DNA of 64,000 nucleotides from Owenia fusiformis. Taxonomy: Eukaryota. The position numbers and the translations under genes were made by a program. The stretch is from assembly GCA_903813345.2 (NCBI GenBank), contig CAIIXF020000001.1, positions 9,548,001 to 9,612,000 on the forward strand, read 5' to 3'. Numbering within the stretch: the first letter of the stretch is position 1; each line of letters starts with the position of its first letter. Under the pieces are notes generated by a model. It did not search any database and was not told the DNA's origin. It worked only from the letters and a program-made list of their open reading frames with translations. Positions 11,731 to 64,000 of the stretch are shown piece by piece.

Positions 11731-12597
11731 CACTCCCCTCCATAAGTTTGGCAACCTTAGCTCCACCATTGAACTACGTGTTACTAGAGCATCTTTACTT
11801 TGGATTTTTATTTACTTAACATGCGATGAAAATACTATATACTGTTGATGGAAACGTAATTTGACTTCATTACCAATGCCTCCAAATTTATCATTTTTTC
11901 CTCAATTACAATAGGTTGAAAATTGATGATAAATTTTTGAAAATCGACATTCCCATGTTAACCAAAGGGAAATGGTAGGCTTGCCGCAAGTCATATGACA
12001 GAATATTCATCCGAGTCCTTGCAAAAAATACAAGTTAGGTAGGCAATTGAATTTGCTAACTTTATTTAACAAAAATTTAATACGTTTCTTCAGGTTCAAC
12101 AAAATTATAAGTCTTTAAAGTCAAAAGTGTTTTTCAAAAAAAACTCTCCCATTGAAATAACAAAGGAGGCGAAAAATGATTTTCAAAAATGACTTTGAAG
12201 CTCTGTAACTTTAGTATTCATCAAGCAAACTAAACACAAAAAAAGTGCACAAAAAGTTAGAAAATTCAATTTTCGATATAAAAATATTTTTGCTGAATCT
12301 TTTACTGAATAGATATCCTGATTTCTGATTTACCCCGAACCCACCATTTCCCATTAGTTTACATGGGAATGACGATTTTCAAATATTCATCAAATTTATC
12401 ATCAATCTTCGACCTTTTGTAATTGAGGAAAAAATTGATAAAGGAGATATTTGAAATAAGGTCAAGTTACGTTTCCATCAATATCATAAGTTATTTCATC
12501 GCAGGTTCAGGTTAAGTGAATAAAAAGTCAAACGTAAAGAGGCTTTAACACGTAGTTCAATGGGGAGCTAAAGTTGCCAAACCTATGGAGGGGAGTG
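11731..12597. mobile_element. Tc1/mariner-type MITE with ~250-bp imperfect TIRs and TA TSD
   Basis: TA-CACTCCCCTCCATAAGTTTGGCAAC ... GTTGCCAAACCTATGGAGGGGAGTG-TA. Confidence 0.85.
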
Positions 12598-32997: not shown

Positions 32998-33821
32998 CGA
33001 CAGGGCGAATAGTGTCTTTCTCTAGAAACTGTGACAACAATTGGCGTGGCAACAACTGTATCCATGACAACCAATATGTTACGTGTTTTACGTCATGCAC
33101 CACCGACTATTGCAACGACGGTAATGGAATTCCATCTAAGGAAGCACGCCAAAGAAAACAATCAATCATAATTAGAGAGCAAACTACCCTTAAACCTACT
33201 TTGATTAACAGGTTTATGAAATTCAAACCTAGCAAAGAAACCACAAAGCCTGAACAATCAAGAAGAGAAAATATGAATAAGAGTACTAATGTGAGTGATT
33301 TATCAAATAAATCGAAGGTTACTAGGCCAAGCTTGGAAGGGGAAGTATCAAGACAACGCGTAACTAAAAATCATTTTGGATTTAGGTCCATGAACAGACT
33401 TCCAGTTGCCCCTCAAATCCCCAAATCCTTGTATCCTTTCCGCAATCGAAACTTCAACAAAACGAAAGATGGAGCTGTTAGTCAGAAAAAAGCAACCTCG
33501 CCAAAGTTAGTTACCCCTGGGAGTAAACACGTGACTCCAAAAGAAAAAACTAGAGACACGCTAAATAGACCTTTATATCTGAGCCCAACCACTCCAGTTG
33601 TAAGACAAACTCAGGATAAACGGGGAAATAACATTGTTCTTGATGGTAAAAGGAATGGTAGAGGTAATCGTCGACGAGGATACAAAAGAGATGGTCAGAA
33701 TTGTGGCTATGGAAATAGACCTTGTAATATTGCTAAAGGACTCCATGCAAAATCTTTTGAATCACTTTATTGTGTTTTATTCACATATGTATATTTAATG
33801 GTCATAAATTATTCAATGTAA
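32998..33821 (+). CDS. Ly6/three-finger gene A, exon 3 (Cys6-10, long basic stalk, hydrophobic tail); spliced protein ~346 aa
   Basis: ctttcag|STGRIVSFSRNCDNNWRGNNCIHDNQYVTCFTSCTTDYCN... ending SLYCVLFTYVYLMVINYSM*. Confidence 0.85.
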
Positions 33822-41401: not shown

Positions 41402-41853
41402 TATATTGTAAATCATTGCCCTGGGCGAAGCCAGTTATGAGGCAAGCGAGGCAATTGCCTCACCAAAAATGTATGTATTCATTCAGACGTTATTTCAACC
41501 AAAACTGTGGAAGTGAAGTCCAAATACACTAATAGCTCAATTTTACACACCTTTTTGTCCATCATGTTACAGTGAAAACGTGTCCCTGTAGTGTGATCTT
41601 GGGTGGCATGGCAGTCACAAGTAGAAATCTTACAAAATTTGAAAGCCATGTTATTTGTCCAAGTTGCAGGATCGGAACTGATTTTTAAATTAAATAATCA
41701 AATCAAATATGACTTATATGAGCAGATTCGTAAAAACGTGTGTAACAAAGACTGTGTAGAGTAAGTTTAGAGTAAGTTTCGAAACCCTGTTAACAATTCT
41801 ACAATAGTTATTGCTCTAATCATTCCATGCCTACTTTTAAGACTTTCCAATAG

Positions 41854-42009
41854 TTGAAGGAGTGAATTGGTGCTACCATTGTATCTACACAGCCGAAGCC
41901 AACGTGCCGAACCTTGATCCAACCTGCATCTACAAACCACAGAGAGTTGCATATAGCAAATACCCGTGCAATGTCAAATACTGCACGACATACAAGAGGA
42001 CAAATATCG
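41854..42009 (+). CDS. Ly6/three-finger gene B, exon 2 (Cys1-5), using the first donor
   Basis: ttccaatag|VEGVNWCYHCIYTAEANVPNLDPTCIYKPQRVAYSKYPCNVKYCTTYKRTNI-G|gtaggt; paralogous to gene A exon 2. Confidence 0.85.
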
Positions 42010-42780
42010 GTAGGTACATAGCCAACCGCAATTACCCGTGCAATGTGAAATACTGCACGACATACAAGAGGACAAATATCGGTAGGTACATAGCCAACCG
42101 CAATTACCCGTGCAATGTCAAATACTGCACGACATACAAGAGGAAAAATATCGGTAGGTACATAGCCAACCGCAATAATCCGTGCAATGTCAAATAATGT
42201 TCTACATACAAGAGGACAAACATCGGTAGGTACATAACCAACCGCAATTACCCGTGCAATGTCAAATACTGCACGACATACAAGAGGACAAATATCGGTA
42301 GGTACATAGCCAACCGCAATTACCCGTGCAATGTCAAATAATGCACGACATACAAGAGGACAAATATCGGTAGGTACATAGCCAACCGCAATTACCCGTG
42401 CAATGTCAAATACTGCACGACATACAAGAGGACAAATATCGGTAGGTACATAGCCAACCGCAATTACCCGTGCAATGTCAAATACTGCACGACATACAAG
42501 AGGACAAATATCGGTAGGTACATAGCCAATCGCAATTACTCGTGCAATGTCAAATTCTGCACGACATACAAGAGGACAAATATCGGTATGTACATAGCCA
42601 ACCGCAATTACCCGTGCAATGTCAAATAATGTTCTACATACAAGAGGACAAATATCGGTAGGTACATAGCCAACCGCAAAAATGAACATACAGTAGCCAA
42701 CAGCAAGTACCCAAACAATGTCAAATAATACAGTACATACAAGAAGACAAATATTGGTAGGTGCAAAGCCAACAGCAAAT
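41961..42780 (+). repeat. 72-bp minisatellite spanning the exon-2/intron boundary: 10 good copies plus a degenerate one, with further remnants at ~43737-43850
   Basis: The unit tacccgtgcaatgtcaaatactgcacgacatacaagaggacaaatatcg|gtaggtacatagccaaccgcaat occurs at 41961, 42033 ... 42609. Confidence 0.95.
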
Positions 42781-42798
42781 ACCCAAGCATTGTCTGCA

Positions 42799-43734
42799 CA
42801 ATGTGTCTCAAAAAAATGTTACACTTACAAAAAGTTCAATATCTTTCATAATTTTGACTTTTCCCCTTAAATATACTTTGGATACCATCAGATTCAAAAT
42901 CTGTCCTTGATTGGCTCTACGGGACAGCTTTTAGTGTTCCATGGTAAAATCTGACTTGCGCCAACATCTAAGTGATTGGATGGACCAAATGACAAAAGAG
43001 GAATAGTTTCTTTAACATTTAACTTTCTTTTGAGTAGAAGCTTGACCTTTAACTGAGTCATTCTGTAATTTTCCTATTTGTCTTACATATGATCATTGGG
43101 TCTATCCACTTAAACATGTGGTCTCCTCAACATGTTCTCCAAAGCAAATCTGAGGTACCCTTGCCCATGCGCACATGCAATATCACACTGATCCCATCAA
43201 TTATTTCTGCAGAAGTTCATTTAGGTCAGTTTGTGATGCTGTAATTAAAGCGCTTTCAGAGGCCCTTCAAAAAATCAAGGGTGTAAAGTAGGATGACGTC
43301 TCTGGGGGCCAATCCATGGGGTAATTCAATGCTATCTTTTGATTTCCAAAGAGTTCTACCAAACATTCTGCCATAGACCTTTGCACCATCCTATTGCCAT
43401 CATACGTAACAAAATTGAACACTCTGACAATGAAATCTTGTATTTCTATCCAGGAAAGAAACAACTGGATCATTGATTAATCAAGATATCACTGTCCACA
43501 TCATTTACACAAAAAAAGAATTGTCCAACCACTGAAAAGTTGGCGCAAATCAGATTTCACGTGCGTCTTTAAAATCTGTCCTGTGTAGCCAATCATAGAC
43601 GGATTTTGAATCTGATGATGTGGATTTATTCGAGAAAGACTTGTCTTTTGGTATCTAAGCATATTTTAGGGGAAAAGTCAAAATCATGAAATATATTGAA
43701 CTTTTTGTAAGTGTAACGTTTTTGAGACACACTG
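42799..43734. mobile_element. Tc1/mariner-type MITE with ~170-bp imperfect TIRs
   Basis: CAATGTGTCTCAAAAAAATGTTACACTTACAAAAAGTTCAATAT ... ATATTGAACTTTTTGTAAGTGTAACGTTTTTGAGACACACTG-TA. Confidence 0.85.
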
Positions 43735-44036
43735 TAGTGTGCTACATTACACGGGGACAAACATAGGTAGATACATATAGACCCAAACACTCTTTATCGT
43801 GACAATGTTGCGATCGTGGTACAAGAGGACAACTATCGGTAGGTACATACTGACGTAATGTCAATTATTTTCTAAAATGTTCAGCTGTTCACATTCTAAT
43901 TAGGATACATTAGAGTTAACGTATATGCTAACCTGCACTAAGTACTATACTATATTATATATGTCTTCCAGATAATAGATTATCGTTTTTGCTATTCAGT
44001 CTTCGATTTATAAAATCTACAAAATTTGTGTTTTAG

Positions 44037-44599
44037 AAACTGGGGAACTAGCTTCTTTTTCTCGTCAGTGTGAGGAGCACTCTAGAGGGAACGCCTGCAG
44101 CAGAGATGGCGAATACGAGGCATGCTTCACGGCGTGTACTGAGGACGGTTGCAACACCGGTGATGGACTCCCAGAAGATTTTGACTTCACCACGGATCCC
44201 CCAAAGGCTAAGGGTAAAGGTAAAGGAAGACGACTTAAACCTGGCATGAAAAGAAGATTTCAGCCTAAAGTTCGTCTCAATAAGAAGGGCCATTGCGATA
44301 CAGAACGTTGTCGTTTCTCTGATAGGAACTTGTCTACCAAAAACCCTGGGAACGCAACACTTAACTCAAAGACGCAATTCGTAAAACTCGGAAAATCAGG
44401 GAAGAAAAAGATGACGAATGCAAATACGGATGAGAATGAAACTATGGACAAACCAAGCAAAGACGACACATCCTATATAAGGAGACGAAACAATAATATA
44501 AAAGGGGAAACTTCGAGGAGAAATTCTGCATCTCAAATTAAAATGAGTTTTCCAATAATTGTTACATTTTCTTTGTATATTTTCTTTTCTCGTCTATAA
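44037..44599 (+). CDS. Ly6/three-finger gene B, exon 3 (Cys6-10, basic stalk, GPI-signal-like tail); spliced protein ~259 aa
   Basis: gtgttttag|ETGELASFSRQCEEHSRGNACSRDGEYEACFTACTEDGCNTGDG..., in frame with ORF 44246-44599 and ending NSASQIKMSFPIIVTFSLYIFFSRL*. AATAAA follows at ~44648. Confidence 0.85.
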
Positions 44600-44840: not shown

Positions 44841-46277
44841 CAGTGTTCACAACAGAGTAACTAACACGACCAGTGTTTACAACAGAGTAACTAACACGAC
44901 CAGTGTTTACAACAGAGTAACTAACACGACCAGTGTTTACAACAGAGTAACTAACATGACCAGTGTTTACAACAGAGTAACTAACACGACCAGTGTTTAC
45001 AACAGAGTAACTAACATGACCAGTGTACAGAATAGAGTAACTAACACGACCAGTGTTTACAACAGAGTAACTAACATGACCAGTGTTTACAACAGAGTAA
45101 CTAACATGACCAGTGTTCACAACAGAGTAACTAACACGATCAGTGTTTACAACAGAGTAACTAACACGACCAGTGTACAGAATAGAGTAACTAACACGAC
45201 CAGTGTTTACAACAGAGTGACTAACATGACCAGTGTTTACAACAGAGTAACTAACATGACCAGTGTTCACAACAGAGTAACTAACACGATCAGTGTTTAC
45301 AACAGAGTAACTAACTCGACCAGTGTACACACCAGAGTAACTAACATGACCAGTGTTTACAACAGAGTAACTAACATGACCAGTGTTCACAACAGAGTAA
45401 CTAACACGATCAGTGTTTACAACAGAGTAACTAACACGACCAGTGTACAGAATATGGTAACTAACACGACCAGTGTTTACAACAGAGTGACTAACATGAC
45501 CAGTGTTTACAACAGAGTAACTAACATGACCAGTGTTCACAACAGAGTAACTAACACGATCAGTGTTTACAACAGAGTAACTAACACGACCAGTGTACAG
45601 AATAGAGTAACTAACACGATCAGTGTTTACAACAGAGTAACTAACATGACCAGTGTTTACAACAGAGTAACTAACATGACCAGTGTTCACAACAGAGTAA
45701 CTAACACGATCAGTGTTTACAACAGAGTAACTAACACGACCAGTGTACAGAATAGAGTAACTAACACGACCAGTGTTTACAACAGAGTGACTAACATGAC
45801 CAGTGTTTACAACAGAGTAACTAACATGACCAGTGTTCACAACAGAGTAACTAACACGATCAGTGTTTACAACAGAGTAACTAACACGACCAGTGTTTAC
45901 AACAGAGTAACTAACACGACCAGTGTTTACAACAGAGTAACTAACACGACCAGTGTACAGAATAGAGTAACTAACACGACCAGTGTTTACAACAGAGTAA
46001 CTAACACGACCAGTGTTTACAACAGAGTAACTAACACGACCAGTGTTTACAACAGAGTAATTAACACGACCAGTGTACAGAATAGAGTAACTAACACGAT
46101 CAGTGTTTACAACAGAGTAACTAACATGACCAGTGTACAGAATAGAGTAACTAACACGACCAGTGTTTACAACAGAGTGACTAACATGACCAGTGTTCAC
46201 AACAGAGTAACTAACACGATCAGTGTTTACAACAGAGTAACTAACACGACCAGTGTACACAAAAGAGTAACTAACAC
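44841..46277. repeat. 30-bp satellite, ~48 copies
   Basis: Consensus cagtgtttacaacagagtaactaacacgac, with recurring variants. Confidence 0.97.
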
Positions 46278-46952
46278 GGCACAATATCAACGAACCATGA
46301 GTTTTTATTAGTACTCAGTTCTCTGCAGTCAACTCCTGAATGAGCAGTTCGTTTGGGAGAAACATTGACTTTGTTCCAAAGTCGCCAATTACTAATTGAA
46401 GTTATTTTGCAAAACCCTCTACCACTTGTCCGGAAATACATTACTTCCGACCTGTAGAATAGATATCAGTCACATCTACTACAACCTGGCACTTGTGTCA
46501 AGTTGATTCTAGGTGTGCTCTGTGAAGAAATGAGATTACGACCCGAAATGTTGAAATCGAACATGACATTGTCGGTTGTTACACATCCTTTTACGTCAGA
46601 CACAATTGCATGTTATGAACTTATACTCAATTAAATAACGTTGAAGTTCAAAAATGTTAACGTCAAATGAAAATTTATAATCATTGATTTTAAATTATTT
46701 TGATTATACTTTGAGGATGACTAATTACTACAAACACTCATGTGAACTGATAATAATACTAATTCAAAGTGTGCTAAAGTGTCTCTATTTTGGTACTCGA
46801 GTGGGCCCTACATATGAGATACCCAGTGAAATAATCATATCGGATTATTAAAAGACCATGGTTAGATCCAAATCTGAAAATAAAACGTTGCTTCAATAAC
46901 TGAGACAGTCAATTGCTTTTAAAAAAAGAAAAAAGGATTTACTTCTTCAAAC

Positions 46953-47097
46953 ATGCAGAGTTTCATCGGAGTAGCTGGGGCGGTTAAAGCGCTCGAGGGT
47001 AACAGGGACGATGATACCATAGACAGACTTAACCATCGTTACACCTTTATGGTCATCGCCATTCTAGTAATCGTAGTGACAACTCAACAGTACGTTG
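46953..47097 (+). CDS. Innexin variable first exon V1 (N-terminal helix + TM1)
   Basis: MQSFIGVAGAVKALEGNRDDDTIDRLNHRYTFMVIAILVIVVTTQQYV-G|gtaagt, with the innexin DD..DRLN..YT...QYVG signature. Confidence 0.92.
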
Positions 47098-49418
47098 GTA
47101 AGTTGGATTTTGTGAATGTAATCTATAGAACATTACATAATGACTGATTTGGGCCTGGAGGTCAATTTATAACTTCTTTGAAAATCAAAATATTATTTTC
47201 CTACAAATACACAGTAACATATATATTTCCAATCCGTTAGAGTAAGTCTGTGTATTCAAATGAAGAAAACAATTTTCACAGTATAATTAATCTATGGTTG
47301 ATTTGATTCTTAATTCAAATTTAAGAATACAAAATTTATTCGAATTCAATGCAGACATCGTGATATGGATCTTCAACTTTCGATTCGATTACTTTTTTGA
47401 GGAAAAATAGATGGCAAATAAAGCAAACTAGCTGATACGATATGAACAAAATGTGATCGTATTCGTGTTTCATTTATTTCATTCATTATTTATTCATTGC
47501 GGTCTGCATTTTCTTATAAGGTATCATTTAGGATGTGGATTAAAAATCAGTTAATGGTTCAGAAACAAAACATTTACAGAGAATATTTGAATGACTAAGT
47601 ATGAAAGCATATCTAGATTAAAAAGGTTTTATTATCAAAAAATAGAATTGCATTTTTGGACCACCTTGTACACCTTTCTTGACCGAACTGGCAACTTAAA
47701 TCGTTGCTATTTGTTGATTTGATGAGTATCAAAATGTATATTTTTTATATCAAACGGTATTTATATATTTATATCTGATATACTTTCACCTTTCAGAAAA
47801 TATAAAAATGTTGATGTTCATCTCGTTTAATCTGGTCATTTGCCAGAGATGTCGTGATGTATTCTGCCTTTGGGCTTGTCTTCCTCGATTTGCTCTCGAG
47901 CGTCTTTAATTGCGTGCTTAACCTTTAAGTTGATTTCATTGACATAATACTCAGTCTTAACTTTCACAAAGTATACATACTTTCCAGCCCAATTTTAAAA
48001 GGACAATATGTCAATACCAGCTTGTAAGTTATTGCAAATACAGTAGTTACAAAAAATGTAACAATTAGTTACAGAAACCAAACGCCCGTTACGATGGCTA
48101 CATTATGCTTCCCCTATTGGTAGTGACTTAAAAATACCGTATGGTGATTCATTTTCCTGCGCAGTTCATTGACCTTCCTACGTATTCTTCCTTCGCCCAA
48201 TTATAGTATAGTATAACTGAATTGTATAAAAACAATAATAGTTTGTGTTGAATAATAATTTGGTGTTGACTTTCATACTCTGTAAGATTATGGTTAGAGT
48301 AACACATCGTGTTTTTAAATTGCTTCGTTACACTATTTTGACAAAAAAGCTTCAACACAGGCACAAATCATTATGGATCTTTTTGTCAAAATGCTTTCAA
48401 ACGAATCAATTTAATCCTGCTGAGTAATGCCTCAGTCGCATTTGACCTACAAAAACCGTACGACGGCCGTAGCTTCTCAAAATCAGAAAAGGCTTATCAG
48501 AAAAGATTACAGTACATAAGAGTATAATAAATCTTTTTTTTAAATCTGACAGTTCATGATGACGTTTGTTTCCTTTAGACCAAGCCTAAATAAATAAAAA
48601 ATATGATATCATTTTTCAGGAAGCGTTCTTTATTGAATAGTTAAATGTGAGGTATGCTTATTTTATGGTGCGTGGTTGTACATTTAAAATATTGAAACTG
48701 TATGTAAAATATGTACTAATATATTATTTAAGTTGAATTAATCGAGTTCTGCGTTGAATGTCTTTCAGGCATCTTTCAAAGGAGTTTATAAAACGCTTGG
48801 GTGACCAATATATGTATTCACATGTGTAATTTGAGTAAAAAACAAGTTCCCAAAAAATAAACTCGCCACTGGACAAAATGGTTGAACGATGATGTATTAC
48901 TTTCTTAATGACTAAGGCTAAAATACCAAGTTTTTGTACCACGGGGTATATCGATACAAAGCCAAACATGCCAAAATAAAAATGCAAATGGTGCAATGGA
49001 CATGGGAAGTATACAATTTTCATTCAACACTCAAAAGGAAGTGGGCGAAATAATATCATCTTTTGATAATAAAAATTTGAAGTGTGCAATTTTATGATTT
49101 TTCATTTACGAGAAAAATATGAGACTAAAGAAGTTGAGGTAGTAATATTTGAATAAATTAGGTCAGCAAATGCTTATTTGGATAGATAAGTCCTGAATAT
49201 ACAACCTTTAAATAAGGTAGGAAGAAGTACATGTAAAGTTTAAAACACTTTAGGGTATTTGAGCAAAATAGGATTCATATATCAATACATCCACAATTAA
49301 AAACAAATTGATATCACACAAAAGTATCAAACAATTAAGATCAAAAAGACAGAAAGGAAAGTACCATTCATAAAGGAAACTACTCATTAAGAACTAATCA
49401 AAATACAGTCGTGCCAAC

Positions 49419-49563
49419 ATGGATAAATTCTTTGATGCAGTTTCTGCAGTTGCTAAGATATCTCCGCGTCAAGACGAGGATGGGTGTGATAGGTTGAACC
49501 ACCGTTATACTCTGGCCCTCTTAGCAATATTCGCACTTCTATGTACAACCACACAATATGTCG
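49419..49563 (+). CDS. Innexin variable first exon V2
   Basis: MDKFFDAVSAVAKISPRQDEDGCDRLNHRYTLALLAIFALLCTTTQYV-G|gtacgt. Confidence 0.92.
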
Positions 49564-50536
49564 GTACGTATGTTCATGAACATCTACATTTCTCAATAGT
49601 TACTTTAGTAGCTATTTCATTTTGATTTACAATGTTTCAGTTGTCGGTGCAAATACACGTGTATGGTAACTGATTTGTTCTGATGCATGGCTTTCGTATC
49701 GAGCTAAAAGATGACTGCTCTTGGTTAGGGAAAGGCTTATTCTGGAGTTGTCGTTATCGTTTCATACGATTCAGAATGACTGTTGGCACATTTCTCAATA
49801 TTTCGATTCGCTTTTTTCTCATCTATACTGAATTAGAAACAACCCTTTAATCTAACCTTACCCAATCAAACTGGATGGAACTACATAATCAGGATTGCAG
49901 TCATAGATTCCTTTGTTTCCATATTTAGCTGGCAACTATTTCATATTCAAACTTTAATTTATCTCTAAAGCTTGTGAGACACAGAGGTTTTGGATCCCAC
50001 AATAATGAAATTTCATTACAGTTATTTGTTGGGGTCAGGATAAAATCTGTTATATTGGTTGCCCTAGTCAGAGCGTAGTGATTCATACTCTAGCCTCTAG
50101 ATCTCAGGGTAGACTGATAGTATTCCTTTTAATCCCATTCATTAATTTAGGGGATTTCCACATTCATTATCATACCTTGTTGAGAAACGGCAGTAAAACA
50201 ATATAAAACGCTTATATACATGTATATAGTCATAAACATTGGCCATCAAAGACTGCATACTCAAACATAAAAATGTGAAGGGCCATAACTTTTTTAGTAA
50301 AGGGTCGCGCCTGACGCTGACACCCAAGGATTAGCTGGTCTTTGCAAGTCCCAAGATCATTTTATATTCTTAAGAAAGCGCGTGTAGGAAGACGTGATTA
50401 CTTCTAGTTGAACGCCTTAGGTGGAACCAAATTTGAGTTGAGCCATCATTAAAATTGGACAAACAAACAGAATTAAGCTTTATAGATATTGTTTGAATAT
50501 TTAAAAAGGATATAACTGAGAACTGGCAATTCAATC

Positions 50537-50681
50537 ATGGAAAAGTTTTTTGATGCCGTTGGTGCTGTAGCCAAAATCTCTCCAAGCAAAGATGAGGACG
50601 GTGGGGATAGATTGAACCACAGATACACGATTGCTCTTTTAGCGATATTTACTTTCATTTGTACAACCACACAATATGTTG
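50537..50681 (+). CDS. Innexin variable first exon V3
   Basis: MEKFFDAVGAVAKISPSKDEDGGDRLNHRYTIALLAIFTFICTTTQYV-G|gtacgt. Confidence 0.92.
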
Positions 50682-51339
50682 GTACGTATACTCCCAATCC
50701 TCTCCAATTTCATTTTGTAACATTCTAACAGGAGCATTTTGTTTTTCATCATAACTTCGCTTTTGCATTTACTTGTTTCACTTAAAAATTCACTTAAAAA
50801 CAGCGACAAGGAACTCGTGGTTGTTCGTCTTGAAATCATTTTTTAATTCATTTACAAAAATCAACTATGAAATATAACGAATCAGAGTGCTTGTTTTCAG
50901 TGCAATATAACTAAACCATGGACAACCAAATGTATTTGCTGTATCTTAGCGTAATAATTTTAGTTCACGTTCATTAATCTATAGGGCATTTCCACATTAG
51001 CCTTACCTTGTTAGAAAGGGGTAGTAAAACAATGTAAAACTTGTACATAGCCATGAACATTGGCCATCGAAGATTGCATACTCAAATATAAAAAGGGTGA
51101 AGGGGCCATAAATTATCCAATAGTGCTTAACGTTGTTACTAAATGGTCGCGTTTGACGGTCACACCCAAGGATTAGATGGTCTTTGGAGATCATTTTATT
51201 CTCATCAAAGCTCGCGTGGGAAGACGAGATTACTTCTAGATGAACGTCGCTGGTGTAACCAAATTTAATTTGAGCCATTATAAAAACTGCACATACAAAT
51301 TTAAAAACGTTATTTTAAACGAGAACTGGCAATTCAATC

Positions 51340-51484
51340 ATGGATAAGTTTTTTGATGCCGTTGGTGCTGTAGCCAAAATCTCTCCAAGCAAAGATGAGG
51401 ACGGTTCGGATAGGTTGAATCACAGATACACGATTGCTCTTTTAGCGATATTTACTTTCATTTGTACAACCACACAATATGTTG
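51340..51484 (+). CDS. Innexin variable first exon V4 (not in the ORF track)
   Basis: Translated by hand: MDKFFDAVGAVAKISPSKDEDGSDRLNHRYTIALLAIFTFICTTTQYV-G|gtacgt. Confidence 0.92.
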
Positions 51485-53958
51485 GTACGTATACTAAATT
51501 ACAATCCTCTAAAACATAGTTGTAACATCCTAACAAGAGCATTTGGATCTTCATCATAATGAAACTCATTTTGTATGCATTTAGTTGCTCCACTTAGAAA
51601 TGCATTTAGAAATAGCGACAATGAACTCGTAGTTGTCAATATGCAACTTCTTCAAATTCTTATAACTTCCAATAACTTAATAAGTACGTATATACTGTTT
51701 AGACTGACTTCAAACGTTTACTGTCAACATATATAAAAAATATCATCAGTTCCAACAAATTTCTGCCAATATCTGTTACCCTGGCAAGATATTGAATGTC
51801 GAAAAAGGTAAAAAAGGTATTTTTCAACTTGCTTCAAATTCATCAATTTCCTTTTCAAAATCATCTTCAAGCTTTCAGAAGTTAAAATCTTACTTTAGAT
51901 TTGAAACAATTGTTACACTGTTGGTCACAGGTGGTGACGTTTTATCATATTAATGCCTCGTTTTGTCATAAAGCATCTGTAACACAAGATTCCGAACCTG
52001 ATGGCTGGTATAAAAAATAAACACAATTCAAACATTCCAATATAAAAATATCAAGGGGAAACAAAATTTTCTCCGCTGACAATGCCTCTTTAACGATGGC
52101 CTTGTTAAATGACAACCTTGTCAGCCAGGACTAAATTCTATGTGTTCCAGACCTTGACTTTTGGACGTTAAATTTTAATCGACGTTAGGGTTGTGGGTTT
52201 GCCCTTTTTTACAAATATCTGATAATAAATGATTTATGGATTAAGGTCAATTGTAAATCATCAGGCCTCGAAATTATACATTGTTGTATACTGGCGCCAT
52301 GAAGAATATTTAATAGTGTCAATGTACGATAATATAAGAAACGTGAAATTTAAAGTCATACTTGAAATATAACGCATCGAAAAAGAATCATAATTTTTAC
52401 GTTATCACTGTTTGGCCATTTTAATTGACCGGTGCCATAAACCTGCCATCCACCCCGATGTGAAATTCCCACTCTACTCCTACCATTTGAATTCCGCGCA
52501 AATCAGCATAAGTCAGCACTTCTTCCTCTTACCATCACCATTAGGGTGTCAACCATTGAATGAGAGAGCGAAATTCGTCTTGGATTTTCATGTTAGAAAA
52601 CGGAAAGAAATCAAAGATCGTGTATCACGTGTAATTAAAATTAACCAGATTTATAGCTCCATTATAAGAATATATTTGGATATCAACTAACGGTATGGAT
52701 TAAGAGACCATCGTCACTTTAAATGTACATCTCAGCATTTCGAATCCAATTACATAGGCAAATGACATCAATTAAAATTTAATTCTTGAAATATAACTTA
52801 CTAGTAATCAACATTTAAATGATATGAAACTAAACTCTGATTAATACTATAATAAGTCTGTGCACACACGATTGACTCGGATCCCCACTCAGATATGAAT
52901 ATGATGGCACAATGATCGAAAACGCTCCGATATTTTGATTTCTATGCCATGCCCAATGTAAATTCTACCCGTTACCCATTTAGATTGTATTTTGGAGATC
53001 AGACTGTGCCCCCTTAACAATTAATCTCAAAACGACTTTCGCTTGATCTTTTGAAGTTGAATTTTTATTGCCAACCAATTATGTGTGTTTTTATATTACA
53101 AGGTTCATTGTTTGTCTATCTCCAAACATAATATTTTGCACGTTCATCACGTTGAATGTCGTTCCGCACTGCATCGAGCATCTTGAACTGTCTGAGGTAT
53201 CCTTTCTCCGAAGAAGGACTTCGAGGGCTCGGTGTGGCATCAAGAAATTGAGCTATTTTTCTGAGAGACTATATTTTAATATGATGATTTAAGATGCTTC
53301 TTGGTTTCTGGCTTCAAATGAAATTGCGTAGAGAAAATGTTCATCTTTGATTTTTCAATTTGTAGTTTTGAAAATTAAAATCTTGATAGAAAAGATGAAG
53401 AATGCCCCTTTTCTCTTCATTGGCTATGCATCCGATGATAGATAAAGAGGATATCCACTGGAAGATATCCTCGGGATTCAAAGTATCCGAGTCATTCTTT
53501 TTTTAAGGCATTAGTGTATGATAATGTAGATACGAATCGTATACAGCAATCGTGCATGTTGTTCATGGATTAACTGGTATAGGGTCAATCCTTCATTTAA
53601 CTTCGGATGCCTTGTTTTTTGATTGACCTGTATATATGTCAAGTATAAACAAAGAACATGTGGTTAAAGTAGATGCAAATTTACCTTCTCCGTAAAAATC
53701 AAATTGCACGTTTCTCGAATGTGGTTGAATAGAGTCGCACACACATTAATGGGTAATTTATACCATAAGTAACGCCAGGAAGGCAAAACTGAATCACATT
53801 GAGAAATATTTATGTTTGATGCCAAAACAGGGGCCTCAGTCATTTAAAAAATCTTATCGTCGTATAGCTCGAGAAGTTAGGACACCATAAAGTTAAGACA
53901 TATAAAATTGAAACTCTGGCTCCTATCGTAACTGAGTTGGAGTTGGAAGGAAGACAAG

Positions 53959-54112
53959 ATGGGGGGCATGGATATGTTTATGGCTGCCGTGAGCAGCGCT
54001 GGAAAACTGCAGTCAAAAAGGGATACCGATGGCGTTGATAGAATAAACTCTGTAGGATCTGTAGCTTTACTTGCTGTGTTTGTGCTTCTCACTAGTACAT
54101 CGTCTTACGTAG
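53959..54112 (+). CDS. Innexin variable first exon V5 (homologous ATG at 53968; upstream ATG 53959 adds MGG)
   Basis: MGGMDMFMAAVSSAGKLQSKRDTDGVDRINSVGSVALLAVFVLLTSTSSYV-G|gtaagg. Confidence 0.88.
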
Positions 54113-55992
54113 GTAAGGACGTCTTCATTGGGGAAATCGCCATTGTCATTCTCGACCGTAGAACACAGGGGTGGATCTGAAAACTAACAAGGGGTTCACA
54201 TTTCAAGTCAGAAAAAAATTTGGGCCACTAACATCAAAGATTGGGTCCAAATTTTGAAAACTTAAGGCCCATTTTCTTTATAATGTGACCTAAAATATAA
54301 ATAATAAGGCCTGAGGGGCCCACTGATGCCCTAAAAGGCCCATAATTGGGGCCTTACAATTTTGTGGGGCCCAACATTTTTCTGAGCCCATCCACCCCAG
54401 ATCCGCTAGCGGAACACTGGTGTAAAATACAGCTAGACTCCGGAGACAAATTCACCTTTCTCCATGTCTTACTTTTTATAAGTCCATGTTAAAAACCCCG
54501 AAGCACAGTGGCTATTAGTAATCATAACCCTCTGACTAAAAGACATAGAGTTATAAATATAAAGAAATAATTGCCAGCGTCTTAATCTTGCCTTAAGACT
54601 TTTTACCCCTCCCCTCTGTGTTCTTCAAATTCCAAAGGTACGGGGGTACACTCTTGGGGCAAGACTACCTACAAATAAAGGTAGAAGAGGCAGGCTGAAG
54701 AGACGATGACAGCTATTTTGAATGGGCGTTCTTGCTTGACAAAAACCCGATTTGGGTGAGGCTAGATCAGAGAATTGTTTCTTCTTCCTTGAAAGAGTGA
54801 AGATGACGCTCTCTTTTAGAGACGCAGAATCAGGAGGGTAGAGGTTTTTGGGACAGGCTGTCGTTTTAACACTATATATTGTGAAATATATCTGTTACAA
54901 CATTCTAAGTCTGTATTAAAGAACAAGTAACCTGTCATGTTCTGAAGAATATATTGAGCACCTTTGTTTGAAGAACTAAAAACCTACTTCAAGTTTGAAT
55001 CACAATATGCATGTCTGTATTGTTTTACCCTAAATAAGGCAAATGTATGATTGATATATTGGACCAAACAAAAACGAGTGTTTTTTTCTTCTGACGAATA
55101 TTTCGAAGTTTCATATGTACAAATCTAAAAGTAGTTGTTTTTATAACAAAATGGTTTAAGTTTGCAATATTTCGATTAATTCTATAATTTTTTTCAGGAA
55201 CTAAAATATATACTTAGTTTCAGTTTGTACAAATCAAAGTATAGAAATGGTACAAATTAAAAAATCATTTTCTAAATCTGGTTTGAAATAAGGACACTAG
55301 ATAGATACGTAATAAAATAGATTATGTAAACAACACCTTCAGTTGAAGATAAGTAGTCAGCAAATTCCATTGAAAATTTTAAAATCTGAAAATTAAAGCT
55401 ATATTTCAAAAAGGCAAAATGAACAGATGATGGCTCAAAGTATTTATCTTGCATGATCCACTTTTTACATTCACTGATTAGAGCAGTTATGTGTCCGTTG
55501 ATGTAACATTTTGTAATAACAATAAACCCCAAAGCTAAAGAGGGATAGGCAGTAATTATAAATGGGCGAAATCAGAATTTATTTGTATGTATTTGAAAGC
55601 ATATTCCCGTTTGCCCTTCACCAGCATTCATTTCACTTGACAAACTAATCTTTGAGAAAACACGTACTTTATTCGTTTGGCGTCAGTGAGTTTGTAAAGG
55701 TTTCTATGGATACATTTAGGAATTCTTTACAGATGCGTGGTAGTCAGGTATAATTGCATGTAGTACATTCATTTGCCATTGGGACATGTGAATAAGGTGA
55801 TGTCGATCAGATCCACTTGACTAACCCTTGCTTCAATATTGAGATGACCCGTTTTGAACCTGGACTTCCACTTTTTTAACATCACCAGTACGCTTCGGGA
55901 GTAGGCCTTTCGCCAACCTCGACAACGATTCAAACAGGATAGGAGTGTAACACTATAATCGAGACTTTTAAAAAACATAAGCGTGAATCAAG

Positions 55993-56137
55993 ATGGATCA
56001 GTTCTTTTCTGCGTTTGGGGCTGCTAGTAAGCTCTCTCCGCAGTACGATGTTGACGGGTGTGATCGGCTCAATTCTCGCTATAGCCTGGGTTTGGTGGCC
56101 ATCTTTGCGCTTCTTGTTGGCACCAACCAATATGTCG
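55993..56137 (+). CDS. Innexin variable first exon V6 (not in the ORF track on +)
   Basis: Translated by hand: MDQFFSAFGAASKLSPQYDVDGCDRLNSRYSLGLVAIFALLVGTNQYV-G|gtgagt. Confidence 0.92.
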
Positions 56138-56645
56138 GTGAGTTAAAAAACTATTAATGAGGCTGAACCTTTAAAAACTGTTGGGTATAATCCATAAAAT
56201 TTAATCATATAATTTGTGACGACGAATAAGTGAAGATTGCACATTAATTATCTAGTTTAATTATTCACTGTATGCATAGGTGACTTTGTTAACTCGATCA
56301 AAATTACTCTTTTGGATACAAATGTAACAAATTATTTATGATTGGTACCAAAACAACTTCGACACATTTGTTTGATATGACGCGTTAAAAATGTGGTTTA
56401 TTGTAATGTTACCAGGTATCACAAGAAATAAAATAAAACATGATGTATGAAGTAAATCTCTTTGAAAGTTACTGACGCCAAACGAGTTACAACATCACGT
56501 TTACCAAGGACTTTTAAAATTTAAAAAACTGGAGTCACATCTCACGTATTGACGCAACCACCTCGGAACTTGCGAAACAAGCTACGATTATTGGAATTAA
56601 AACTTATTTGTATTGAATATTGAATAACAAGCTCAAAGGGAAATC

Positions 56646-56790
56646 ATGGAGAAGTTTTTTTCTGCGTTTAGAGCAGTTAATAAACTCGCTCCTCATAGAG
56701 ATTGCGATGGGTCAGACCGAATGAATTCTCGTTACAGTGTCGGGTTGCTTGCTGTGTATGCGCTGGTTGTGGGTACAGGCCAGTATGTGG
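56646..56790 (+). CDS. Innexin variable first exon V7
   Basis: MEKFFSAFRAVNKLAPHRDCDGSDRMNSRYSVGLLAVYALVVGTGQYV-G|gtaaga. Confidence 0.92.
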
Positions 56791-58046
56791 GTAAGACTCC
56801 TTATAAACAATGTCTTTTGCAACTTTATTTTAATTTCGGGTGTAAGTGGTAGAACTTTTTTAATATGGCCGGTTTGCGCATGCAGTTTACGTTTCGTGTC
56901 AAATGTTTAATAAGCACTTAGCCAGTATTTACTTTTTCTAACCAGACATATCAAAAGTTCTTCTTTTAAGTCTTGAACAATCTAAATTGGTCCCAATGAC
57001 TACACATTGGCCACAACTGCATTGTCATCTAAACATCAGTTTATGTTGTCAATAAGTACATCATGTGACTCACCACAAATTAGTCCTTTTTCTCAGTAAT
57101 CTTACATTACAAAAGGCCTGTCTATATAAATGTGCGAGTCGGAATCTTGAAACCACATTTCTTTTCATAAATATAGACTTTTTGATTCCTTAGACTGTCT
57201 GATTATTGACCCGTGAATCTATTGAGCCCAGAGACAGGAATGGGAAACATAGCGTCCTTTGTAGCATGGGTGGGGTCATCCAGTTCGTCTTGAGAATGTT
57301 TGTGAAATATATGAAACACGAGATGTAAAATCACTGAAATCGTAGGGCATATTTAATGTTAAAACCTTTTCAGATAGGCATCTTTACATTAATAGTTGTT
57401 CATCAATCGTGAAAGGATCTCCATGTCCTGTCTTATCATTTGCTATCACATCATCCGTTACACCATTTTCTAGTTGAGATCAAATGTGTAACTTTACAAT
57501 ATAAAAGTGGATTAGATTAAATGTACCCAAACTAATATGAGTCTGGGGTACATTAAAATTATTGTAGAAGTAGCGCTTTTCAGGGTACAATTCCCCAATT
57601 TCTGGGTACAGCAGTGACACAGTAAGAGATAGACAGTCTGTTTAAAATGTCACGTCAGCCAGTACTTTTTTTACGATGGTAGAATATCACTTTGACATTG
57701 TGGCCCATTTCTTTGGATCAATAATGATTCTCGGGGCATTTCATTTCGCATTCTGTATATTTTCAACCAAAAGACAAGTAAGTGAGAATCACTTTGAATG
57801 GTCAGTTTGTGAATCAGTTGCTGATGCCAGTTACATGTGTATTACTCCCCCATAGAAAGATAAGACAATATGAAAGCGTTAGATAGGAGTGATTTCTTTA
57901 TTAGATGACATAAGATATATTGTAAATAGATAAGGTTGAAGTTCAAGATTTAAGTGCACTGGTGATAAATTAGAGTAAGGCCTTCAGTCCTTCATGTTCT
58001 CTTGAATTCTGACCACAGTGCATTGGACATTCTTAGAGACAGCACT

Positions 58047-58191
58047 ATGGAACAGTTTATAGGAGCAGTTGGTTCCATTGGAAAACTTGATGCTAAATTC
58101 TATGACGACTCCGTTGATAAACTTAACCATAGATACACAGTTGCTGTTTTAGCAGTTTTCGCTCTACTTGTTTCAACATCTAGTTATGTCG
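58047..58191 (+). CDS. Innexin variable first exon V8
   Basis: MEQFIGAVGSIGKLDAKFYDDSVDKLNHRYTVAVLAVFALLVSTSSYV-G|gtaagt. Confidence 0.92.
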
Positions 58192-59357
58192 GTAAGTTAG
58201 TACAAGCAGTGACAGGTGCACGTCATCATATATGTTATATATAGATGATTATTTTGAAATATATGTTCTTATCACGTTTTTAGGTATTACTGCAAAATGT
58301 CTTGGGTCTGATTATTTCACTAAAATAAAATGTAGGACGCGTTTATATGCTTTTTATAGCCGATAAAATGTTATTTATAAATGCAAAGGTATGCAAAAAT
58401 TAAGTGTTTGTCTAAAGATTCAAACTTGGGGTTTTTCATACTCGTTATTTATATCCAAGGTACAATCACGAACGTGTCCAATCGCTGACACTGCTAACAT
58501 GTTTCTTTTTTAAAATGAAAACATGACTTAAAGCTGTTATTATATAACATGCGTTCAGTGATAATATCCCTATGGAGATAACGCACGAAAGAGACCATTT
58601 TGAGCGTAACGTTTTAACTGGTTTAATACCTGGTGTCAAATATCGGAAATAATCTCTATAAAATATGTTATTGGGTACTTCAATACTAAAAAGTAAATAT
58701 TTAATTTGTTTTGGGCTGTGGCTACAAACACGTTTTAAGTACAGGAAAATATTGTTTAAAGGTAAATTACGTATTTCGGTGTTATTGACTTTTGATTCAA
58801 GTTGTCAATCGACGATTCATTGGTTGCGAAATATTTATCACTTATGATATGAAGAAATATCATCCAATCGGAAATAGCAGATACATGAGATAATAGGTAC
58901 AAGTAAGCAACACGACGTGCCTTTGTTTATATATTCAAAGAAAAACTTTTTTATTTACCTATCCCATTGAAAAGTGTACTTTTGACTTCCGAGTTTACTA
59001 GAACATCCTTTTTTACGTTTTACGTTTATAAGATCACGTCGCCCTGATATCATTTCAAAGAAAGATTAGAACAATGACAAGTATACCACAATCCATAAAT
59101 GCCACTGACAGTTGAAGATATATTACTTCAGTTATTTTATTATCACCAATACTAGAATAGAAGGTGACCAGTCACCCAGTGATAACAAAGGACGCTAGAT
59201 ACAACCCTAACGTACTCCAGACAATAGATACCAGACTCGTTTCTACTTTCTGATCAGTTGTAAAACTGATAAGCTTTAGTGTTCAAGTGCAAAGTTAAAA
59301 TTATATGATAGGACTGTGGACACATTCATTGTATAGGACTCTCTTAGAGTAAGGACC

Positions 59358-59502
59358 ATGGAACGGTTCATTGGAGCCATTGGCTCAGTTGGAAAATTAG
59401 ACGCCAAACTTCACGATGATGCGGTTGATAGAATCAATCATAGATACACAGTCGCTGTTTTAGCAGTTTTCGCTTTATTAGTCTCAACATCTAGTTATGT
59501 CG
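59358..59502 (+). CDS. Innexin variable first exon V9
   Basis: MERFIGAIGSVGKLDAKLHDDAVDRINHRYTVAVLAVFALLVSTSSYV-G|gtaaga. Confidence 0.92.
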
Positions 59503-62500
59503 GTAAGAAAGGATACATACATATTGTTAATAAATTTCGCGATCGACCAAAGTTCAATTTAGTATATATTGAAATTTAACATAGAAACATTTCTCACAAG
59601 TTGTCATGAGTTTACTTTAATTGAGCTATAGAAAACACTTTTGAATAAGATTACTTTAGTGTATAATTATGAGACGTCGGCCAGACAAAATTGGGCAATG
59701 AGCAAAAAATGTTTAAAAGGAAGAATCAATAATAAGTACTTACACGAAATGTAATTTCAATCATAGCAATGACGTTAAATGAAGCTTATAATTATCTCAG
59801 ATTCGTTTTTGGGGCTTACATAGGTTTCGTGTTATTTTTCTTCGTTTGTGTGCTTAGATTGACGATCATGTACCTTATGTTGCGTCCTTAGAGGTGTGTG
59901 TGTTTATTTATTTATTTAGATATACACTTTTTTAACAGTGGCACTCTTACATTAAGGTGCATCTAATCGAAAAATATCCACAATGCCATGTTGGTTAAAA
60001 ACAGACATTTTATCAAACTAAAATGAGTCTTAAAAAGAATTAAAACATAGGTATGTTGATATTTACTTAAAATCTTATTTAGAAAGCGTTTTTAGAGTCG
60101 AATAAGACACCATATTCGTGTTGTTGACACGATCAATTTATCATTTGAAATTATATCTCATGGACATATATTTATAAGATATAAGATATAACTTTGGTAG
60201 TATGATACCTTTAGGCGTTTTTATGATCTGGCTATCTGTCATTCGATTCGATCCTGTTTTCTTCTTGGGGTGACTTGTTGCAGTTTGTTCAGTAGTTATT
60301 TTGATATGATTTGTTTACTTTCTGCGATAAAGTTTCATAAAAAAGGATAGATATCCATATTTCTTTTATCTATATTTATGCAAAATAGTTTTTTGAGGGT
60401 GACTTTTACTTGTAATTTTGATATTACTTTTTTCAGTTGGTTTAGTTTGTTGAATAGAAGATGTTCAAGCAAATGATTTAAATAAGAGCTAAAAGTCAAG
60501 TTGAATTCTTGTTTTGGTCTAAATTACTCTCTTGTGGTACAAATCTTTGAAATATCAACTCGTTCGTAAGTGCTAAGCATAGATTGCAGCAACATTAGTA
60601 AAATTCAAAAAATAAAACACCCACAACCTGAATTAACAAAAAACACATTTAAAATGCATATATTTACAATGTCAGATGAATGTGGTTGTATCTTAACAGT
60701 TAGTTATGAGGATATGGATGTTTCGTCGAAAGTCCTGTGTACATTAATGTTGCCCTTAAGCGGCACGAGTATTTTTTAACTGTCAAGTTTAGCGTCATCG
60801 TTGTAACTTTACTACATTAACGACCAGACTCCTAGGTCATCGTATACTGTGAATCTGCTATAACGTTCCTAATTCAGTTTAAGTTCATTAATTTCAACTT
60901 AATGACCTAATTTATTGAGGTTCAAATGTGTGTATAATTAAGCAATACTAATTTACTACTCCAGTTTTATCTTATACTCCTTGGGCCTGAACAGTGCTGT
61001 TAATTGATCGACAGTTAAAAAGTTAAAAGTTATATAACATGTAGCTCTTCTGAATAACAGCAGATCTAAATTGATCCTTGTAGAACGCCATGTAGAATTG
61101 AATCGTTGTAAATTTAATGAACAATCCAGAATGTTCATTGTTTCTGGAATTCTATGACCACGATTATCAGGTTCAAATTCAATACATACATCGGGACAAA
61201 AGTTGTGATCTGTAGCCCCAATAAACGACTGGTATTGCAACTGCAGTCTGGTCATTCTATAAGACATACTGTGATAGACTTACATTAAACGCGCCCACAA
61301 CGTCAAATTGATGATGAACGTGACTTTTGAGTTCAAACTGGCTGGTTGTCTGGTATTTCAATAAACAAAAATGCGTGCAGAATAAAATGTGACAGTTTTG
61401 AAATATGGAACAATGGATTGGTCTGGGGATAGTCTTGTAATGTGAAATGGACATTGTTTATTAATGGCTGTGGACAAAGAATGGCGTCCTTTATCGTGAT
61501 ATATAACTTGTGACCATACTCTGGACTCTGGACGTATCACTTCTCCGTTACTTTAATTTTACTAAAATATTTTAAGTATTGTTACAAATTGCCTTAATGG
61601 TTTCATGAAATAGCATAATATCAAAACAAATTGCAAAAATCCAAATATAAAATATTTACATTCAGTAGAGATGCTGAGCTCGATTGCCGTATAATACTTC
61701 ATTTTAGGCACCATACGGCGATTGCCGTATCATACTTAAATTGTATAAAACCGTTATTTTTCAAAATAAAGCTCGGGCGTAAAGACGTATATCTTGAGTT
61801 TGTTCCATTTTTTAAGGTACGTATGTATATTTGTATGTTTAGATCTTTAACTTGCTATACAATTAGCTAAGCTTGTTTAGCGTGCTTAAAATAGTAAGTA
61901 AATGAATAGCCTTTTGAAAATAAAATACCCAAGTCAAAAGTACACGGATCACTTCTGAAATACTATAAAAATCGAGGAAAATAATATCCAGTAATTTTTA
62001 ATCATTCTTTGGAAATATCAAAAATAAGTATGGAAGCTATTTTATTTCTCTATAAGAAAGAAGATTGTTTTAAATGTATTTCCCTCGAGGGAATTAAAAT
62101 TCTATCATTGGGAATTCACGCTATAGTCTTATGAACTTTAATGAAGGACTTTACCGTAAATTGACGACGTGATTTGTATGCAGCTGTACGTTAACATATT
62201 CCTTATCTTAACTTACCTTGCGTGCGTGGAGCTAGGGGCAACGTGAAGTCCAATGGTCCTTTAGTCTAGTTCAATAAATATTTTTAAAATAAATATGCCG
62301 CCTGGTTCATAAGGGAACCTGGGATAAGATGGCCTTTAGTGATTTAGTAGTCTTGATCCAGTTTTGAAACTATTCTTGCTCCGAGTAAGTCGTGTAGGTG
62401 CCAAGTTGGAAGGTGATTCGAAAGAAGACTCTATTCTATTGTAGACAATGAATTAATGATTAGGTTGTTACAATTGGGAAACAAATGCAACGGGACCATT

Positions 62501-62724
62501 TTCCCCCAGTTTCCCTTATTGCATTTGAGACTTTGTTCGGGGTGGTGTCAATTTAAATGACTACATGGTCTGATTTTTAAACTTTAAATTGCAGTAATGA
62601 ATAAGCTATTACGTAATTGTATATGGAGAACACTAAGGTACTATCTTGCCCCTGGCTCCCCTATTAGTGTGAACTTAATGTTGTCTTTCTAAAAAAACTA
62701 ATTTACTAAGTTTCTTTCTAGACG

Positions 62725-63375
62725 ATGGGGCGGTTCAAGACAAAACAACGTTGTGCATCCCAAAATATTCATGGCGAGAATAATGAACAAATGCACCAAC
62801 TGATTGACTCAAAATATATAAAGGCTTCAACCAGAGACCGTCTGTGTGAACTTGCCCAAATAGACTTTTTTAGTTTTCGAAAAAGGCACAAACTAAAGCC
62901 CCTTTCATTTTGTAAATCCTGCATCAAAAACGTTGAATTAGAAAACGGTGGAAACGCACCCGCAAGAAAACAAAACCTATCACATGTTAATCACGATCAT
63001 AGTTACAATTCTGGAGGGAAAAAAGACAATGATATATCTATACAAACAACAAATACTATTCTTGATCTTGGAGATAATCACCAAGACTTGTCGAACCAAA
63101 TGGAGACGTTGCCATCGTCATATTTAAAGAACCTAATCTATGCACTGGGGAAAATTATTAAACAGGAAATAAAAACATATTCTAACAACTCAAACATTGA
63201 TTTGGATTTTGAAAAATTACGCCTGAGCAATGCAGATTATTTCACGTCATGCCCAAAACTACTTGCAACATTGCTTTTAAGCATATCTGGTGTTCCAATG
63301 GACTATACGTTTAAATCAAGCAATGTCCCTGGTCAGTATCCAGATGCATTAGAAACCCTAGAATACACGTTTTAA
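62725..63375 (+). other. Unassigned 216-aa ORF, possibly transposon-derived; not innexin-like
   Basis: A long ORF for this base composition, preceded by an acceptor-like tttctttctag (ending 62721), with a CKSC motif. I recognise no family. Confidence 0.3.
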
Positions 63376-64000
63376 ATCAGCATGATGCTTGTACTTCAAG
63401 TAGTTACTACTTCATGTTTGCTCTACATACGCTTGTTTTACGTTATATAAAGCATATCCCGCAAAACATATGTAACGATTTTTATGTGAATAGAAAACGT
63501 GAAAAACAACTAAAAACTCGTGCGCGAATTATTTTTAGGTATTTCAAAATGCTTTATCACGCGTCAAATGTCCGCGCAAAATAATTTAACAAGGAATGTT
63601 TATAATGTTCCATGTTCAGTTTGTGCATTTTAGTGCAACATACTTTTCTAATGACAGTGTTTATAGGCCTACCAGATCTTCCAAAATGGTGAAACGGAAT
63701 AAACGAATTCAAATTTTTCTTTCTATTGCAGTTAACCAGATTTCAATAGAGCTTTGAGTTGATATTCGGGTCATTATACGACGTTCATAAAATTCCGCCA
63801 TTAATCGCCATCTCCATAATATGACTACACCAGTAATGCAAAAGTGGGTTTAAATCTAGGATGAAGAATCCTAGGTTTGAATCGATGAAAATGAAAAAGT
63901 TTCAAATAATTCCTATCCATTTTCGCACGCTCGGTCTTTACTGCGTTCGACCGACGGGAGCCGAGTGAACGAAGATGATTTCTATCGGCAATTGGAAAGA

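Follow-up and report, generated by a model that had tools for sequence, protein, structure and literature searches.

Nine innexin first-exon cassettes in tandem

The window analysed here is the whole 64-kb stretch of Owenia fusiformis DNA from 9,548,001 to 9,612,000 of contig CAIIXF020000001.1 (positions below count from its first letter), and its + strand carries, between 46953 and 59502, nine cassettes with the appearance of innexin first coding exons, here named V1 to V9. A check of the window sequence reproduced every start position given in a preliminary description of the locus. Measured from the homologous ATG up to a GT donor, every cassette is exactly 145 nt long and comprises 144 coding bases, encoding 48 aa that end in YV, plus a single G; this G is the last exon base in all nine (phase 1). 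A purine stands at position −3 of every ATG (G in V5, A in the other eight), and the donors are the five hexamers named before. The array and the intactness of its nine cassettes are confirmed. They are listed with the sequence that follows, the second coordinate of each cassette being its last exon base.

46953..47097, + strand: V1, putative first coding exon, 48 aa + 1 nt; donor GTAAGT at 47098
49419..49563, + strand: V2, putative alternative first coding exon; donor GTACGT
50537..50681, + strand: V3, putative alternative first coding exon; donor GTACGT
51340..51484, + strand: V4, putative alternative first coding exon; donor GTACGT
53968..54112, + strand: V5, putative alternative first coding exon; donor GTAAGG
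55993..56137, + strand: V6, first coding exon of annotated isoform CAH1772864.1; donor GTGAGT
56646..56790, + strand: V7, putative alternative first coding exon; donor GTAAGA
58047..58191, + strand: V8, putative alternative first coding exon; donor GTAAGT
59358..59502, + strand: V9, first coding exon of annotated isoform CAH1772865.1; donor GTAAGA
59503..64000, + strand: start of the intron leading from the array to the shared exon 2, first 4498 bases; no match to residues 50–402 of CAH1772865.1, no further cassette

When the nine peptides were searched against the whole window with tblastn, exactly nine loci were returned at E ≤ 1e-27 and everything else at E ≥ 0.26, so this search found no tenth or decayed copy in the 64 kb. 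The spacers measure, from V1 to V9 in order, 2321, 973, 658, 2483, 1880, 508, 1256 and 1166 bp, and 4498 bp separate the V9 donor from the window end. The Pfam Innexin profile (PF00876) matched eight of the nine cassettes at profile positions 1–29 with E ≤ 1 (11.1–24.4 bits, E 2e-5 to 0.23; 22.7 bits for V1), scores that fall below the 25-bit cut-off, as expected for fragments of 48 aa; V5 gave no match at E ≤ 1. Contigs of a DNA-like run repeat the array layout with 15–28 differences per piece, and a single contig of 1473 bases covers V6 and V7 together. This speaks against assembly collapse, with the proviso that the run is possibly not independent of the assembly.

Two annotated isoforms share one constant region

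With V8 as query, the database yielded a single protein, the O. fusiformis innexin CAH1772865.1 (alias P0001; 402 aa), and none carrying V8 itself was found in our protein database searches. Residues 1–49 of CAH1772865.1 correspond to window positions 59358–59504, i.e. V9, at 100% identity. Its 90% cluster has two members, the other being CAH1772864.1 (alias P0002; also 402 aa and from O. fusiformis), whose residues 1–48 are identical to V6 (100%) and are followed by the shared constant part. The two proteins bear consecutive accessions, lie on the same 62.2-Mb contig and are identical from residue 47 onward (a common suffix of 356 aa starting at YVG), leaving a constant part of 354 aa in common. 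Both match the Pfam Innexin profile far above the cut-off of 25, CAH1772865.1 with 354.5 bits over positions 1–333 of 333 and CAH1772864.1 with 344.1 bits over positions 2–333.

Residues 50–402 of CAH1772865.1 found no match in the window by tblastn, the best stray hit scoring 27.7 bits on the − strand. The earlier statement that neither the stretches between the cassettes nor the sequence up to 64000 contain a downstream innexin exon therefore holds with a full 402-aa innexin as query. The same goes for the reasoning that complete genes would not fit into the gaps: those between V3 and V4 (658 bp) and between V6 and V7 (508 bp) came out at the same values when recomputed, and the constant part is without a match in the window. 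Because the V6 and V9 isoforms have an identical body that is not matched in the window, splicing of these two of the nine cassettes to a constant region beyond 64000 is documented. The preliminary description had proposed that all nine are alternative first exons spliced to one such region; for V6 and V9 the annotated isoforms bear this out, while for the other seven it is signs of selection that speak for it.

According to the paper describing it (PMC9977687), the Owenia gene set was produced by Mikado, Augustus and PASA, with RNA-seq support for 31,678 of 31,903 transcripts (99.29%); we infer that the models of CAH1772865.1 and CAH1772864.1 are transcript-based. Three RNA-seq runs with the same species label, each sampled to about 6–12%, gave a cassette depth of 0–0.2 and are uninformative on expression, their reads falling only on repeats at 51619–52209, 59893–60483 and 63439–64000.

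The exchanged segment is predicted to line the pore

CAH1772865.1 aligns with Caenorhabditis elegans INX-6 (5h1q_A) from residue 5 in a phmmer search (E 4.7e-54). An AlphaFold2 model computed from 67 sequences (predicted local distance difference test, pLDDT, 87.7; predicted template modelling score, pTM, 0.85) places helices at residues 2–12 and 22–48 and shows the four-helix innexin fold with an N-terminal helix, as in INX-6. Five INX-6 entries were the top Foldseek matches (E 5e-15 to 2.5e-12, TM-score on the target 0.73–0.76), the best being 5h1q_A (E 5e-15). The YYQW motif is characteristic of innexins; residues Y99, Y100 and W102, together with C54, C72, C259 and C276, are invariant across 67 aligned innexins including CAH1772865.1. 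Two conserved cysteines are described for each of the innexin extracellular loops (PMC5412853). The two annotated proteins are thus members of the innexin family and are predicted to form gap-junction channels or hemichannels.

In INX-6, the first transmembrane helix (TM1) is the innermost and faces the pore, and the N-terminal helix lies in the vestibule, where it forms the funnel that is the narrowest point (PMC6084585). Taken together with this geometry, the helix positions in our model suggest that the exchanged unit consists of the N-terminal helix (residues about 2–12), a short loop and TM1 (about 22–48), that is, the pore-lining start of the subunit. Most TM1 positions vary among the cassettes, and the net charge of residues 1–24 spans 0 to −3, being 0 in V7 and −1 to −3 in the others.

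Selection on the cassettes

Pairwise nucleotide identity between cassettes ranges from 43 to 97%. V1 is the most divergent (29–46% amino acid identity to the other eight), and V3 and V4, 97% identical, are recent duplicates. V2 shares 81–83% of its amino acids with V3 and V4, yet just 74% of its nucleotides, and the 38 differences between V2 and V3 fall 28 times on third, nine times on first and once on second codon positions. Synonymous divergence (dS) by the NG86 method is saturated and hence undefined in 26 of the 36 cassette pairs. In the 10 defined pairs, which include V2, V3, V4, V5, V7 and V8, the ratio of nonsynonymous to synonymous divergence (dN/dS) is 0.09–0.40; examples are V2–V6 (0.16), V6–V7 (0.11, at a dS of about 2.1) and V8–V9 (0.096, at a dS of about 1.0).

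The likeness between cassettes is confined to the exon. In six of the seven pairs examined, exons are 56–80% identical and flanks 44–53%, compared with 47 ± 2.7% (maximum 52) for random 150-mers of the window; with flanks at the random level and exons above it, similarity ends at the exon and its donor. V4 alone retains flank likeness to a neighbour, the V3–V4 flanks being 49–69% identical. Within V1–V3, all five listed differences from the DNA-like run's contigs are synonymous (two of two in V1, one of one in V2, two of two in V3), a count based on 39 of 198 listed differences. D21 and D24, which do not vary among the 67 innexins, are likewise retained in all nine cassettes, as are Y47 and V48. 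From the base composition of the window we estimate that an unconstrained frame of 48 codons would be open about 3% of the time. Because frame, length and donor are kept where synonymous sites are saturated, and because of the dN/dS values, the exon-edge similarity and the synonymous variants, we infer that V1–V5, V7 and V8 are also used.

V5 departs somewhat from the common pattern. It reads SVGS where the other cassettes read (H/S)RY(T/S), although it keeps every column that is invariant across the nine (M1, F4, D21, D24, N27, A36, T44, Y47 and V48). An extra in-frame ATG lies at 53959, 9 nt upstream of 53968, and the V5 product may accordingly start MGG-MDM….

Origin of the array and related loci

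Adjacent cassettes are the most alike (V3 with V4, V2 with V3 and V4, V6 with V7, V8 with V9). In a tree of 103 innexin N-terminal segments, built on 48 columns and weakly resolved, a single starred clade (99/96) unites the nine cassettes with the N-terminal segments of two Owenia paralogues that lie on another contig, and within it (V8,V9), (V2,(V3,V4)) and (V5,(V6,V7)) are supported. We take the array to be a lineage-specific tandem expansion.

A scan of metagenome contigs with a four-cassette alignment as query yielded 46 innexin exon-1 loci. A single cassette was present in 44 of these, most of them under 5 kb, and two tandem cassettes in the remaining two (L012 and L014), apparently one gene that occurs in two assemblies:

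L014 9634–11948; L012 714–1321: two tandem innexin first-exon cassettes, about 70 aa each, on annelid-like metagenome contigs

The L014 cassettes, separated by about 360 bp, show 87% identity over 47 aa and have a GT donor after the same codon, followed by one constant exon (10944–11948). Each covers the N-terminal helix, TM1 and the beginning of extracellular loop 1. An ATG opens the first; the second is closely preceded by a TGA and so depends on an acceptor. A neighbouring gene on the L014 contig (L013) shows 82.5% identity to a Capitella teleta innexin. This locus resembles that of Owenia in placing tandem first-exon cassettes before a single constant exon, and differs in having two copies, in their length of about 70 aa, which reaches extracellular loop 1, and in the lack of an ATG in the second. 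It hints that first-exon duplication recurs in annelids at small scale.

Choice of cassette and alternative explanations

We consider it very probable that the array belongs to one innexin gene, in which nine alternative first coding exons lead to a shared constant part downstream of the window. The first coding exon would have been multiplied by local tandem duplication into nine equal-length versions. Transcription would start at one cassette, using its own ATG; the donor of the chosen cassette would join the single exon 2 acceptor downstream of the window, and cassettes in between would leave as intron. The outcome would be as many as nine subunits that have the 354-aa body in common and differ in their pore-funnel and pore-lining segments.

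A separate promoter for each cassette is likely, judging from the sequence. The alternative is mutually exclusive splicing of the Dscam type, where one promoter and a common noncoding leader upstream of V1 would serve cassettes that are internal exons. That an exon encoding the N-terminal helix can be internal is suggested by 31 isoform groups of innexins, mostly from molluscs or brachiopods: in most, the members differ only ahead of the canonical start of the N-terminal helix, which implies an acceptor just before the first codon in those groups. The second L014 cassette, with no in-frame ATG and a TGA directly upstream, must likewise be entered by splicing, and V8 and V9 have TCTTAG 12 nt before their ATG (as TTCTTAG and CTCTTAG, respectively), a site that our acceptor rule rejected but the spliceosome might accept. 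In Owenia, however, all nine cassettes begin with an ATG preceded by a purine at −3, and acceptor-like sites occur upstream at background frequency (three in 9 × 200 nt versus about 3.3 expected, at 0.37 per 200 nt) according to what is a crude home-made rule. The sequence upstream of seven of the nine is purine- or A-rich. Moreover, with a + strand open reading frame ending at 44599 and a minisatellite at 44841–46278, about 670 bp are left upstream of V1, little room for a shared leader. On account of the missing acceptor enrichment, the ATG in every cassette and the scant leader space, separate promoters are favoured and mutually exclusive splicing seems unlikely. The flanks, unrelated between cassettes, also fit independent regulation. 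A search of the 400 nt upstream of the cassettes revealed no shared promoter motif: the best 8- to 10-mers (one mismatch allowed) occurred upstream of eight cassettes, a spread no wider than in 30 random region sets from the same window.

A reading in which only V6 and V9 are functional, the other seven being unspliced relic duplicates, is consistent with the presence of V6 and V9 alone in database proteins and with the atypical V5. We judge it improbable, and more so than internal splicing, since relics would hardly have retained frame, length, ATG and donor in nine cases out of nine while synonymous sites became saturated and flanks fell to the random level; the low chance of an open frame, the dN/dS range in pairs with V2, V3, V4, V5, V7 and V8 and the five synonymous variants in V1–V3 argue in the same direction. 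The array could also be read as nine independent innexin genes, or as first exons of several loci stacked by an assembly error, but nothing beyond the repetition itself favours either, and we give them next to no credence. The window holds no innexin exon besides the cassettes, gaps of 508–2483 bp cannot hold 354 codons, and the two annotated isoforms have one constant part in common, while the DNA-like contigs run at even depth (about 12–35), one of them across V6 and V7. Separate genes and assembly collapse were rejected, being contradicted by the tblastn null for the body and by the shared constant part.

Several points nevertheless weigh against a single gene with nine alternative first exons. 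An annotation drawn from many RNA-seq samples lists just the V6 and V9 forms, and searches for longer proteins carrying V8 or the nine-cassette profile returned only the two-member cluster, though this is a weak blank; the other seven cassettes may be rare, highly cell-specific or unused. V5, with its altered motif and no Pfam match, is the least certain member of the array. To these are added the narrow basis of the synonymous count, the crudeness of the acceptor rule and the TCTTAG sites of V8 and V9.

Comparison with known systems

Alternative innexin N-termini are known already, and the nine-fold tandem series of N-terminal helix and TM1 would be an enlarged variant of that theme, partly visible in public annotation. 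In two of the closest known systems, ShakB (PMC5412853) and UNC-7 (PMC7455501), N-terminal variants decide the voltage gating and rectification of electrical synapses. By analogy, gating, rectification or heteromer compatibility may vary among the Owenia forms. ShakB N+16 and Lethal are reported to be identical only from the end of TM2 onward (PMC5412853). As in Owenia, an innexin gene yields different N-termini on a common C-terminal body; but the source discusses two variants with a variable part reaching TM2, whereas Owenia has nine that end after TM1, at residue 48. In Owenia, moreover, the cassettes arose as tandem duplicates, homologous and all of one length; ShakB is compared here at the level of its proteins. 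For unc-7, 10 isoforms in six N-terminal groups are described, the N-terminus setting voltage dependence and rectification, and unc-7b at least has its own promoter and first exon (PMC7455501). Here too one innexin gene has several alternative N-termini, but the segment before TM1 varies in length (24–168 aa) and sequence, while Owenia would swap the whole unit of N-terminal helix, loop and TM1 at constant length.

Molluscs and brachiopods provide a further comparison. Their innexin RefSeq models include many 5′ variants per gene (nine forms in Haliotis rufescens, seven in Pomacea, six in Lingula), and in 27 isoform sequences the N-terminal helix and TM1 are constant, with a leader peptide of 0–79 aa varying in front of them; Owenia, in contrast, swaps the N-terminal helix and TM1 themselves. 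Such leader variation (in the RefSeq mollusc and brachiopod models; P0122–P0131, P0193–P0205, P0220–P0224 and others) is a widespread second way of varying the N-terminus. We compared 509 innexin pairs whose constant parts agree to 97% or more, and 501 pairs selected by a second rule; an exchange of the N-terminal helix and TM1 was seen in the Owenia pair alone.

In layout, the array resembles the clustered protocadherin and UGT1A loci, where homologous variable first exons stand in tandem, every one of them provided with a start codon and a donor, and are joined to shared constant exons by the use of separate promoters and of the cap-proximal donor. The Owenia exons are likewise arranged in tandem, with an ATG and a donor in all nine and no acceptor enrichment. 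In those loci every variable exon is joined to the same constant exons, which in Owenia is seen for V6 and V9. The differences lie in the protein family, in the size of the variable exon (145 nt in Owenia rather than about 2.4 kb) and in the conserved element common to protocadherin variable-exon promoters, for which nothing above random regions was found in Owenia. The preliminary description was not aware of this organisation at such a scale in innexins, and our literature search agrees: it found no innexin exon array of this kind described, with supplements and most subscription journals outside the search, ShakB and UNC-7 being smaller precedents. A 2026 preprint that names both Owenia and innexins deals with connexin-like domains, a subject other than this locus.

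Neighbouring sequence in the window

Directly upstream of V1, the minisatellite at 44841–46278 consists of 47.9 copies of a 30-bp unit with 89% matches and no indels. As a by-product of this repetition, open frames of 498 and 494 codons run through it, on both strands. Further upstream, two paralogous open frames on the + strand (32988–33821 and 43979–44599) bound the innexin locus on its 5′ side; common to both is a segment rich in cysteine, SFSR.C…C….C.T.CT.D.CN.G.G, after which come an extended basic tail and a C-terminus of hydrophobic character. Neither gave a match in a Pfam search, and their products look to us like the last part of a Ly6/uPAR-type domain plus a GPI signal. The − strand frame at 41820–42818 (332 codons) repeats a 24-aa unit about ten times (VGYVPTDICPLVCRAVFDIARVIA); its Pfam matches to DPBB_1 and IMP2_C are probably repeat artefacts, as no separately significant stretch was present.

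High-copy repeats lie between and after the cassettes (51619–52209, 54574–55164, 59893–60483 and 63439–64000), with a summed contig depth of 190–1557 versus about 12–35 elsewhere. The RNA reads on three of them (all except 54574–55164) show many loose ends and odd joints, and the four are probably transposon fragments expressed from elsewhere. In the intron after V9, a + strand open frame of 217 codons (62722–63375) had no Pfam match.

Implications

If the array works as proposed, one gene could yield up to nine channel subunits, which suggests a means of diversifying electrical coupling without multiplying whole genes. As to annotation, two products out of a potential nine are present in the public gene set, and gene counting by the longest isoform would see one innexin where nine may exist. 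For structure–function work, nine same-length versions on one body amount to a natural set of chimeras.

We tentatively raise the possibility, which we hold to be less probable than not, that the cassettes stand under separate cell-type-specific promoters, so that pore funnels and TM1 helices would vary between different neurons and tissues on an unchanged innexin body. The INX-6 hemichannel is octameric. If this were true, and if the Owenia channel is octameric like INX-6, combining even a few variants would make a wide range of conductances, voltage-gating behaviours and rectification properties available, and the pairing of different variants across a junction would create directional electrical synapses, as with ShakB N+16/Lethal and UNC-7b/UNC-9. 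The locus would then hold a one-gene 'identity code' for gap junctions in a protocadherin-like layout.

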